Below are positions 24,001 to 27,000 of a DNA stretch of 64,000 nucleotides, piece after piece. Position 1 is the first letter of the stretch. Each line of letters starts with the position of its first letter. The position numbers are program-made. The DNA lies in assembly GCF_057098645.1 (NCBI RefSeq), contig NZ_CM169472.1; one strand, written 5' to 3'.

Positions 24001-27000
24001 TCTGGCGTGCCGTGGCGGATCTGTAGCGGTTTTTGCAGGGTTTCGGTGAGGCTACGGCAAGCTGCGACACCATGGTTAACTACCGGTAAACCGTTCAGTT
24101 TAGAGGTTCCGGCTTCGATGGATTTTTTAATCCCTACAGCCGCTTCTTCGTACCGATTCAGACGGGTATATGCATCGATGGTGCTTGGCAGCAGATCGCA
24201 CTCTTCTTGTAGTGTTTTCAGCAGTTCGATGTGTTCGTCCATCAGCGCCACACCTGCGCGCGGTTGGCTAAGGGTTTTACCTTCCTTGTCTGCTTTCAGC
24301 AGCGCAAGAGAGAAGCGTTTATGCTCAGGGATGGTTTGTTGGTATTTAACGCCATCTTCAAAGATTTCAACATCCTTACCGGTTTCCCAGGTTTTCAGTA
24401 CCTGTTGCCGCTCGGTCATGAATTCGTCATGGGTTAATTTCTTATTTCGAAGTTCCATTGATTGCAGCCTTAATTGTTATAGGGTTAAGCATTGAATACT
24501 GGTGCGCGCGGCGGCCAGCGGATCGACTCTGGCGACGTTTGCCAGCAGTGGTAATAGCCCCCGGGAATCGCGGTAATATTCAAATTCGGTCGGTAAGAGA
24601 ATGCGTTTACCGTCGTCGTTTAACTCGCGGTATTTCAACCAGTGATGCATATCGAACTGACTGGCACGCGAGAGCCATCCGCCGGATCCGACGACTTTAC
24701 GCACGGTTGTCAGGTCACGTCCCATCTGTAAATCGACATTGCCGACGCAGGTGCAGACCTCTTTTTTGGTGCCCGCATGTCTTTCGGTGGCATAACCCAC
24801 ACACAGTCCGGCCAGGACGGTATCGAAATATTTCTCTTCTGCATTTGCGGGTAAGTAGTCGGGATGAGCGACTAGATGACGGAGGTAATGATAAAAAGCG
24901 TCCAGCTGTGCGGGTTGCTGAGCAAAATTCACATTGACTAACTCTTTCGCACTTTCACCAACCACCACTGCCGAGACGCGCATTCCCAGATCGCCTTCCA
25001 CCGTCCGTTTTACGAAGGGTTCCGGTACGCCGTGTAAAACGGTGTCGGGCGAGAGCGTGTTGGCACAGGCGGAATAGACATCGGTGGTTGCGCCGCCCAT
25101 GTCGATCAGCATGAACTCTTTCCAGCTGTGATCGACGTTACTGATTGCCTTGACCAGTTCAAAGACCGTCCATGGTGTCGGCATTGGTTCTTCGCCTGTT
25201 TTATCAACAATGACATCCAGCCCTTTCCCTTTAACGATGCGTTTAAGGAATATGTCGCAAATAGCCTGGCGTGCGGCTAAAGGGTTCGGATGGTCAAGAT
25301 CGGGCAGAACATTGTCGACGATGGTCAGGTCTTTATGCCCGAGGATCTCCTGCACCTCGTCCTGAATATCCCGGTTTCCGGCATAAATAATGGCGCAGTC
25401 GAGTTTGGATTCTGCCAGCACACGGGCGTTATTCAGTCCGTAGCTTTCTTCTCCGCCGTCGGTGCCGCCGGTGAACAAGAGAATATCGGGCTGCGTTTCT
25501 TCCAGTGCCTGGATATCACGGCGGTTCAGCTTGTAGGCGTAATATTGCGCAATTTTAGCACCCGCAGAGTGAGCGGTTACTTTCGCGGTTTCCAGGGTGA
25601 TAGAAGGCACCAATCCCATTGCGGCAACCGCCAGCCCACCTTTGGCAGAGGAGGAATACTTCAATGCAACCTCACCGCTGTTTAACAGGGGGAGGGCATT
25701 ATCTACGTTTAACACCTGGTTCAGGCTGGAGAAAAACCCTTCGCCAGATGATGGGTGGTGGTTGGGGTCAGTACGTGGTTAACCAACGTTAACGCGTCCC
25801 CCTCCCGGGTGAAGAGGGCTGCTTTGGTCCACGTCGATCCAATATCGACAGAGACGATTTGCATCAGATAGCCTCTTCAAGAATACGAGTATCAACGTCA
25901 TGACGTTGGTTGATATCGTGGGCCATCAGCTGACAAACATCTTCTAAGTCATGACTTGGGGCAAAGACGCGATCAAATCCCATCTCTTTGAATTTGGTTT
26001 CCACGTCAGCGAAGTCATGTTTTCCGACCACCAGGTTACCGCCCACATAGAGCAGGATGTCCCCCAGTCCACGCTCGATGCAGCGTTCGCGCATGCCCAG
26101 ACAGTCGATATCGCCATGCCCATAGATAGAGGAGACGACAATCGCGTCAGCGCCAGTTTCAATGGCCGCATCAATATATTCGTCCTGGCTGACCATTACG
26201 CCCAGATTAATGACTCTGAAGTCGTGGTTGCTAAAAACGCGGTCCAGAACTTTATTGCCTACTGCATGGCAGTCCGCGCCAATAACGCCAATCACAAGTG
26301 TTGCTTTCTTCATGGGTAATCCTTTGTAAGACAGAGAGTAAAATAAGTTACACACGTCGTATTTATGGCCGTTCATAACGGCACAGGTTTAATATCACAG
26401 GAGTGTCTTTATCTGACCGTAATGTTGCAATTGATCTATTTTCAAAATGTCTTTCGGGAAATGATTGTTTAAAGTGTGTTTTTAAATTTCCATGTTAATT
26501 CAGTGTGTTATGTCAACTAATGTCATGAATGTTAAATTTTTAAAATTAACTTGATTTAATGTATTGAGATAATTGTGATCTACTTCTAATTTGCATTTTT
26601 GTGACGTGGTTTTAGCCATGAGTAAATGCATTTCATAAGATTTAAGTCGAATTTCACTGCAATTCATCTCTGCTTAATGTAAAAATAATGTTGAAAATAA
26701 CAAATGGTTAATGATTCATGCGAATTATGACGTTAGTTAGCTCTTTTGATTTTTCGTAAAAAAGAGAGGTACATGAAGGTGCTACCAGTATGAGTAACGT
26801 TAATCAAAGGTTTTATTACGTCTGGCAATAACGCAGGCCATTTTTCGCGACAGGGTGGATTTAATCAGTATAATCCTCATACAATATTTCAGGATTAACT
26901 GAACCGTTAACCGGGTTTTGGTGTTGAAATTTAGAAATGGCGGAGTCAATCAATGAAGACAGTATCGAAAAAATAACTGTGTCAGAACTAATTTCAATTA

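Follow-up and report, generated by a model that had tools for sequence, protein, structure and literature searches.

The glmS locus and its upstream gap

The 64,000-nt stretch of contig NZ_CM169472.1 (NCBI RefSeq assembly GCF_057098645.1) analysed here, hereafter called the window, is 100% identical to the corresponding DNA of E. coli O145:H28 RM12761, whose RefSeq annotation was used to assign genes. The window carries a minus-strand cluster in the order glmS, glmL, glmE, mal, an AtuA-family gene, a DUF4387 gene, a dicarboxylate/amino-acid symporter gene, a class I fumarase gene, and cobO. In this cluster glmS stands for subunit S of methylaspartate (glutamate) mutase, not for glucosamine-6-phosphate synthase. 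The class I fumarase is the FumD mesaconase of Kronen and Berg (PMC4682846). The cluster, together with a convergently oriented gene of a LysR-type transcriptional regulator (LTTR) at its far end, is located between sucD and cydA. We studied the control of the operon, and in particular the long intergenic gap upstream of glmS. The features at the locus are as follows.

25864–26313, minus strand: glmS, first gene of the cluster
26314–26860: intergenic gap of 547 bp
26861–27283, minus strand: next gene upstream, coding for a 140-aa hypothetical protein
15333–16238, plus strand: LTTR gene (GcvA-like; Pfam HTH_1 and LysR_substrate domains), candidate activator

The gap has exactly the limits and the low GC content given in a preliminary description of this DNA. 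It is unannotated, and its GC content of 0.324, compared to 0.504 for the window, places it among the lowest 1% of 547-bp segments. It is present at full length, and without annotation, in 1135 of 5426 complete E. coli genomes (21%, or about one fifth), including those of O157:H7, O55:H7, and O145:H28 strains; for one of the 1135 copies, the record is classed as plasmid and not as chromosomal. The glm cluster is also found in many Klebsiella, Citrobacter, Salmonella, Yersinia, and Morganella. A repeat search of the gap revealed only short repeats at the chance level. A 55-aa open reading frame (ORF; 26500–26667) was rejected as a gene, having no Pfam match and overlapping poorly conserved DNA.

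The glmS ATG and the N-terminus MKK(A/S)TLVIGV are conserved in 37 species. Another in-frame ATG at 26376, in the loop of a hairpin described below, would lengthen GlmS to 170 aa; no Shine–Dalgarno sequence goes with it, and E. whittamii and other genera lack it. Since it is not conserved, the annotated start stands, and the 170-aa form is a chance extension.

A conserved box overlaps a weak predicted promoter

Regions upstream of glmS were collected in a one-genome-per-species scan, which yielded 80 glmS loci, about 50 of them from Enterobacterales. Within Escherichia, the 157 bp closest to glmS diverge by 0–2.7% (0–2.7% in the part described in this section, 0–2.4% in the predicted 5′ untranslated region, or 5′UTR), below the third codon positions of glmS (1.3–27%). 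The distal ~390 bp of the gap (26471–26860) are poorly conserved, with 1.3–15.8% divergence, so that divergence of the proximal part is roughly ten-fold lower. The proximal part contains the following elements, numbered relative to the predicted transcription start.

26427–26462, minus strand: operator box ATTTCCCGAAAGACATTTTGAAAATAGATCAATTGC, 36 bp, about −67 to −32
Within the box, minus strand: element ATCAATTG, singled out alongside TTGA and TCAA
26425–26430, minus strand: predicted −35 element TTGCAA, at the 3′ end of the box
26402–26407, minus strand: predicted −10 element GACACT, 17 nt after TTGCAA
26389–26394, minus strand: TATTAA, initial transcribed sequence or alternative −10 element (start near 26382)

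The 21-bp core of the box, TTTTGAAAATAGATCAATTGC, is invariant in ~30 species of ~10 genera (30-species alignment). The box contains a 15-bp dyad, TTGA-N7-TCAA (26445–26431), which has a 4-N7-4 layout, includes T-N11-A in the form TGA-N7-TCA (conserved in most clades), and ends 1 nt before the −35 element. Such a 15-bp 4-N7-4 layout with T-N11-A is typical of LysR-type operators. The box also holds an AAG-N4-(C/T)TT element and a GATC sequence (26433–26436). Recognisable variants are present elsewhere, tTTTTCAAGAtnTCCTGAnAATAnATCAATTGT in Yersinia, Hafnia, Budvicia, and Morganella, and TCAAGTTGTCTTCAnATTTTATCAATTGC in Yokenella and ENT03. A position weight matrix (PWM) of the box, scoring 45 bits at the site, has a single match of at least 8 bits in the window, and the 21-bp core matches once at three or fewer mismatches, compared to 0.02 matches expected by chance; PWM and self-similarity scans of the window revealed no further copies. 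Among E. coli genomes, the 46-nt box region is present in one copy per genome, in island-bearing strains only, and is at least 99% identical in 1131 of 1135.

The TTG of the predicted −35 element is invariant in all aligned loci, and the arrangement TTG[C/T]nn-17 nt-[G/C]A[C/A/T]A[C/T]T was observed in 38 of 39 species, the exception being Hs463, which has CATCGT. TTGCAA-17-GACACT matches the σ70 consensus at 7 of 12 positions; the TTG, A−11, T−7, and the 17-nt spacer are the parts conserved in the 38 species. With only seven matches, the promoter is missed by a consensus scan, which found no sense-strand σ70 site with at least 9 of 12 matches in the leader; the poor match also implies dependence on an activator. 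TATTAA is conserved only in the clade of E. coli, Klebsiella, Citrobacter, and Salmonella and is absent from the Yersinia, Morganella, and Yokenella clades.

Several other promoter and regulator consensus sequences (FNR, σ54, ArgR, OxyR, Lrp, and NsrR) were compared to the region by eye and rejected because spacing or key bases did not fit. As read from the sequence, a σ54 element (GG-N10-GC) is absent, since AA rather than GG is located 10 nt upstream of the invariant TTGC. The dyad differs from an FNR site (TTGAT-N4-ATCAA) in its N7 spacing and its length of 15 rather than 14 bp, and no canonical FNR site was seen by eye, no pattern scan having been made. A perfect TTGACA at 26511–26516 (minus strand) is found in this E. 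coli lineage only (strains MFDS and MOD1 have TTGGCA and TTGGTG); it has no good −10 element at 16–18 nt and is probably a chance match.

The box is linked to the LysR-type regulator gene

Orthologues of the LTTR are 64% identical in Yersinia, where the gene is located upstream of cobA-pduX-glmS, 57% identical in Yokenella, and 54–55% identical in loci L084 and L085, the latter a metagenomic contig. Linkage to the glm cluster holds for every one of them, and at least four different layouts occur. In a database search, orthologues of at least 54% identity were found only in cluster-bearing Enterobacterales. The next homologues, GcvA-like proteins of 44–47% identity, are encoded outside any glm context, as is the closest homologue from beyond the Enterobacterales (Leeia, 44%).

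A second copy of the box was found in three loci, upstream of an operon coding for FecCD, ABC, TonB-receptor, and BtuF-like proteins.

Yokenella (L053), 1017–1052: second box copy
ENT03 (L052), ~1024: second box copy
Metagenomic contig L085, ~9885–9855, minus strand: second box copy

The second copy matches at 25–26 of 29 nt in L052 and L053, and it ends with TTGCCT, followed by 17 nt and TATATA. In L053 and L085 it sits between the LTTR gene and the divergent B12-uptake-like operon, in their shared intergenic region; the ENT03 fragment ends short of the LTTR gene, and divergence is documented for the other two loci only. In L084, the LTTR gene and glmS are themselves direct divergent neighbours, 279 bp apart, and the DNA between them holds the box variant CAATATCTCTTG...TAAATTGCAA, then 17 nt, then GATTTT. 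Regulator and target are thus divergent in L084, Yokenella, and L085, but not in E. coli, where they are convergent and ~10 kb apart. The module of box and promoter is found in promoter contexts of four kinds, in each case at a locus that encodes the cluster LTTR, and this constant association is the main argument for the LTTR as the cognate activator. The second copies suggest that corrinoid uptake may be co-regulated with the B12-dependent mutase.

Kronen and Berg (2015; PMC4682846) list the LTTR as putative only and found no condition under which O157:H7 expressed the cluster or had methylaspartate ammonia-lyase activity, a result that fits a promoter which stays off unless its activator and co-inducer are present. 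A literature search on regulation, start sites, and expression of the operon returned nothing besides this paper.

Overall, we consider it probable (roughly 0.6) that the gap is a composite control region, in which a weak σ70 promoter is activated by the cluster LTTR bound at the box. A number of points weigh against this proposal. While conservation, geometry, regulator linkage, and the lack of an RNA family match (see below) are direct observations, the assignment of the binding protein, the position of the transcription start, and the direction in which the operon is regulated are derived from comparison of sequences. The distance and convergent orientation of the E. coli LTTR gene are unlike the textbook divergent layout, and scans for the box came up empty both in front of the E. 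coli LTTR gene and in the LTTR–cobA intergenic region of Yersinia. The centre of the box, at about −44 (TTGA-N7-TCAA) or −53 (AAG-N4-CTT), is nearer to the start than the usual −65 of LTTR sites, unless TATTAA is the −10 element. GACACT could instead be part of a protein-binding site, part of the box resembles the IHF core (ATCAAnnnnTT), and the low proximal divergence within Escherichia could partly result from recombination instead of selection.

Some of these points are shared by the best-surviving alternative, according to which the box is the target of another protein, either global (IHF, a member of the CRP/FNR family, Lrp, or ArcA) or specific but unlinked, and the LTTR acts elsewhere or has no role here. 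In addition to the remote E. coli LTTR gene and the missing box upstream of it, ATCAATTGCTT partly fits the IHF core WATCAAnnnnTTR, and TTGA...TCAA resembles FNR/CRP half-sites. However, the half-sites are spaced 4+7+4 and not 4+6+4 as in CRP/FNR sites, a single box per genome limited to island-bearing strains is unlike the motif of a global regulator, and invariance over 21 bp in ten genera is rare for an IHF site. Moreover, the box variant shifts between clades in step with divergence of the LTTR, and the second copies are located beside the LTTR gene. We consider another protein at the box unlikely, though worth keeping in mind.

Most of the gap is weakly conserved DNA, in part from a lineage-specific insert

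The cluster adjoins cydA also in Klebsiella, Citrobacter, Salmonella arizonae/diarizonae, Pseudescherichia, and E. whittamii. In these relatives, cydA and glmS are ~1.2–1.4 kb apart and both hypothetical ORFs found between them in the window are absent. In E. coli, an AT-rich insert of ~1.75 kb (about 26720–28467, GC ~0.36) is located between the two genes, and E. whittamii and Escherichia sp. E1V33, which lack both ORFs, match the window only up to ~26719. Since relatives are without the insert, the outer ~140 bp of the gap are the tail of a lineage-specific insertion.

26720–26860, minus strand: 3′ tail of the insert, ~140 bp of the gap, E. coli-specific, with no recognisable terminator
26861–27283, minus strand: first orphan ORF of the insert (140 aa, GC ~0.36)
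27364–28308, minus strand: second orphan ORF of the insert (314 aa, GC ~0.36)

Searches of the orphan ORFs against Pfam, PADLOC, and NCBIfam gave nothing significant. The ORFs evolve fast and show only a weak signal by codon position; in Escherichia sp. MOD1-EC7003 they are broken into fragments. Two records in the collection stood out: contig L002 (JAIJJM010000209.1), binned in a 'Collinsella sp.' metagenome-assembled genome (MAG), is ~97% identical to the E. coli locus, orphan ORFs included, and is almost certainly a mis-binned Escherichia contig, and a 'Citrobacter sp.' MAG (L003/L010) contains both E. coli-type and Citrobacter-type copies.

The distal part of the gap outside the insert also differs by 9–16% between Escherichia lineages. 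Thus, more than two thirds of the gap is weakly conserved, and about 140 bp of it is insertion-derived; the length of the gap, which had been taken as a sign of complex control, is in itself no evidence of it. The proximal 157 bp most likely represent the ancestral control region, and the gap as a whole is most likely a composite and not an RNA leader.

The composition of this DNA raises the possibility of xenogeneic silencing, in which H-NS would coat the AT-rich segment 26314–29110 and keep the operon off, the gap being long because it is acquired DNA with no dedicated switch. The GC content is 0.35 over this segment, compared to 0.51 in the operon, the island is present in only a fifth of E. 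coli, and the operon was silent under all laboratory conditions tried (PMC4682846). Composition alone, however, cannot explain a 36-bp box, a fixed −35/−10 geometry, and the ten-fold lower proximal divergence. Since silencing by H-NS is compatible with anti-silencing or activation by the LTTR, it would be an added layer more than a rival, and as the whole explanation we regard it as distinctly improbable.

Conserved elements in the distal part

Two short elements of the distal part are conserved.

26571–26592, minus strand: CRP-like site AAATTAGAAGTAGATCACAATT, with a perfect right half (TCACA) and 3 of 5 matches in the left half
26494–26502, minus strand: TGAT block, at about −107

All clades share the distal element (T/A)AGATCACAA. 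The CRP-like site was compared to the 22-bp CRP consensus AAATGTGATCTAGATCACATTT. Its centre is at −186.5 from the predicted start in E. coli; across the E. coli/Klebsiella/Citrobacter/Salmonella clade it keeps a fixed position between −186 and −191, too distant for a standard class I CRP site at the predicted promoter, and in Yersinia and Budvicia it is at −217. The TG(A/T) of the TGAT block is invariant in the 30-species alignment. In 11 of 26 clade genomes the block reads as an extended −10 element (TGnTAnAAn; e.g., TGATATAAA and TGATATTAA) at −107/−108, but the E. coli version is degenerate (TGAATTAAC). The block is possibly an upstream promoter, P2, or a site for another protein, and together with the CRP-like site it might make up a CRP-dependent promoter further upstream, serve as an auxiliary or looping site, or have another role. 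The only two GATC sequences of the gap are located in the box and in the distal element (26577–26580), ~144 bp apart; an involvement of Dam methylation is a speculation.

If P2 (26502–26494) were the main promoter, the CRP-like site, whose centre is ~95 bp upstream of the hypothetical P2 start, would act as a class I activator site, the box would be a roadblock or repressor operator, and the cluster regulator would be a repressor. Conservation of the TG(A/T) block and of the TCACAA site at a fixed spacing of 78.5–80.5 bp, as well as the good extended −10 elements in the 11 clade genomes, are consistent with such an arrangement. Yet the element is degenerate in E. coli itself, the block with its spacing did not turn up in the clades of Yersinia, Morganella, and Yokenella while the geometry of box, 17 nt, and −10 element is universal, and a CRP site centred near −95 fits class I positions only marginally. 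We therefore regard P2 as a very doubtful candidate for the main promoter.

The predicted transcribed leader is short and matches no RNA family

The predicted mRNA upstream of glmS contains the following features.

26314–26395, minus strand: predicted 5′UTR of ~82 nt, counted from the predicted start A26395, which is placed by the position of the −10 element
26366–26385 (core 26382–26368), minus strand: stem-loop GCCGTT-AUG-AACGGC, +11 to +30 of the predicted mRNA
26320–26325, minus strand: Shine–Dalgarno sequence AAAGGA, 6 nt before the ATG; (A/G)AGGAT in nearly all aligned species

The hairpin (−8.2 kcal/mol, local z = −2.7) noticed in the preliminary description is real but is located 53–72 nt upstream of the glmS ATG, not at the start codon. 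In 13 of 24 near-clade species, a small stem-loop is located at about +10 to +30, although the stems are unrelated in sequence. The mean z at this position is −1.37, compared to +0.44 and +0.03 in control windows (Mann–Whitney p = 5e-4, with species that are not independent of each other). The hairpin is absent from Enterobacter, Lelliottia, Pluralibacter, and C. amalonaticus. It is followed by CAUAAAUACG, with no U-run. The hairpin may stabilise the mRNA modestly, especially if TATTAA is the true −10 element, in which case it would be 5′-terminal; by the tests applied, it is no regulatory switch.

The same description called the whole gap a long leader that might contain an RNA element, such as a cobalamin riboswitch, and proposed an Rfam/Infernal scan. 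The part predicted to be transcribed with glmS is only about 82 nt long, shorter than cobalamin riboswitch aptamers. An Rfam cmscan of the whole window at gathering thresholds gave no riboswitch or other cis-regulatory match in the region, and at E ≤ 10 over 25800–29300 it returned only chance matches to eukaryotic snoRNAs and miRNAs, with no cobalamin riboswitch (RF00174, RF01482, or RF01689) among them. The whole leader (577 nt) folds no better than dinucleotide shuffles (z +0.40), and neither does the predicted UTR with 30 nt of coding sequence (z −0.14). No terminator-like site was found in 26314–26860 on either strand, and the sequence between the promoter and the Shine–Dalgarno sequence is unconserved between genera. 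A structured cis-regulatory RNA, be it a cobalamin or other riboswitch or a hairpin attenuator sensing B12 or a pathway metabolite, is thus extremely improbable, even though glutamate mutase needs adenosylcobalamin and a hairpin recurs at the same position with different stems, because in addition to these negative results the hairpin has only 6–8 bp and is missing from several genera.

Proposed control of the operon

The region is best filed as an uncharacterised, putatively LTTR-type activator-dependent promoter located in AT-rich, probably H-NS-prone DNA. The distal ~390 bp are weakly conserved AT-rich DNA, the last ~140 bp of which derive from the insertion that placed the two orphan ORFs. 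The σ70 promoter, with its −35 element embedded in the 36-bp operator, is predicted to be weak and probably silent alone, and would most likely fire only when the LTTR (15333–16238), together with a co-inducer, occupies the TTGA-N7-TCAA dyad. The mRNA would start near A26395 and carry the ~82-nt 5′UTR, with the stem-loop at +11 to +30 and the conserved Shine–Dalgarno sequence. The CRP-like site at −187, the TGAT block at −107, and the H-NS-type composition would probably add catabolite control and silencing.

Complex control, as supposed beforehand, is therefore borne out in part, by the conserved operator, the CRP-like site, the TGAT block, and the H-NS-type composition, but not by an RNA element. 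Of the regulators then considered, a dedicated one, possibly responsive to the glutamate pathway, is plausible, while anaerobic control by FNR or ArcA would be conjecture.

Taken together, the box and the LTTR might be the missing on-switch of a cryptic glutamate-fermentation island, which would coordinate the supply of adenosylcobalamin with the mutase, respond to a gut signal, and possibly be made bistable by Dam. As a whole this picture is speculative, and we think it improbable. If it were true, one regulator and one operator would join the B12-uptake operon of Yokenella-type genomes and the mutase operon, and the signal might be one such as glutamate, methylaspartate, mesaconate, or a corrinoid. 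Dam acting at the two GATC sites might make the switch bistable or phase-variable, which could explain silent bulk cultures.

Induction of the E. coli cluster was not found by Kronen and Berg (2015; PMC4682846); the 36-bp operator, the predicted start, and the candidate regulator make the question testable. Since no inducing condition was found (PMC4682846), a role of the cluster in gut colonisation remains a prediction. For annotation, the lesson is that an operon for a B12 enzyme may be preceded by a long AT-rich gap that is not a riboswitch.

Other features of the window

Two cluster genes, glmL (24477–25864) and mal (21773–23013), are frameshifted pseudogenes (split ORFs) in the O145:H28 strain of the window; both are intact in O157:H7 EC4115 and in strain MFDS1019527. 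Because of these frameshifts, the pathway is probably dead in the window strain, while the control region is unchanged. Within the cluster, a 160-bp gap between the DUF4387 gene and the symporter gene could hold an internal promoter; the PWM scan found no operator box there. Upstream of cydA, a second very AT-rich intergenic stretch has a GC content down to 0.22, and its cydA-proximal 350–640 bp are conserved across genera; a multi-promoter control region of cydAB has been described there. Elsewhere in the window, Rfam matches were obtained for the CpoB/ybgF thermometer (142 bits), naRNA4 (88 bits), a tRNA array of the lysT-valT-lysW type, and RtT RNA.

19925–20084: 160-bp gap between the DUF4387 and symporter genes
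28309–29110: AT-rich intergenic stretch upstream of cydA
37145–37283, 8210–8280, and 38210–39008: regions of the Rfam matches outside the gap

Comparison with known systems

Like the stabilising stem-loops of the ompA type, the glmS leader has a small GC-rich hairpin near its predicted 5′ end, whose position is kept while its sequence varies. Unlike them, it would have about 10 unpaired nt in front of the hairpin with a start at 26395, too many for the classical effect; the hairpin would be 5′-terminal only if TATTAA is the −10 element, and it is absent in several genera.

The locus resembles H-NS-silenced, horizontally acquired islands with their own counter-silencing activator, such as the enterocyte effacement locus (LEE) with Ler or the Salmonella pathogenicity islands (SPI) with SlyA, in its AT-rich control DNA, its variable presence among strains, expression undetectable in the laboratory, and a regulator encoded on the island. 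It differs in that the coding part is of genome-average GC content (0.51) and only the intergenic and orphan segment is AT-rich, and in that its H-NS binding is a prediction from composition.

With leaders of the cobalamin riboswitch class (RF00174; btuB and eut/pdu-associated leaders), the gap shares a long region in front of an operon for an adenosylcobalamin-dependent enzyme; in contrast to them, it matches no covariance model and shows no significant fold, and its predicted UTR is too short. The link to B12 appears to be transcriptional instead, since the same DNA box heads the B12-uptake-like operon in Yokenella-type genomes.

Another comparison is with catabolic promoters activated by LTTRs, such as benA and catB (BenM/CatM) or gcvT (GcvA). 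The locus is unlike these in that E. coli, Klebsiella, and Citrobacter have the regulator gene in convergent orientation at the distant end of the ~10-kb cluster, the dyad centre is at −44/−53 rather than at the canonical −65, and the operator is a predicted one. It is like them in having a cluster-linked LTTR with HTH_1 and LysR_substrate domains, a 15-bp T-N11-A dyad upstream of and overlapping a poor −35 element, a conserved footprint of ~35 bp, and, in L084, L053, and L085, a divergent arrangement of regulator and target.

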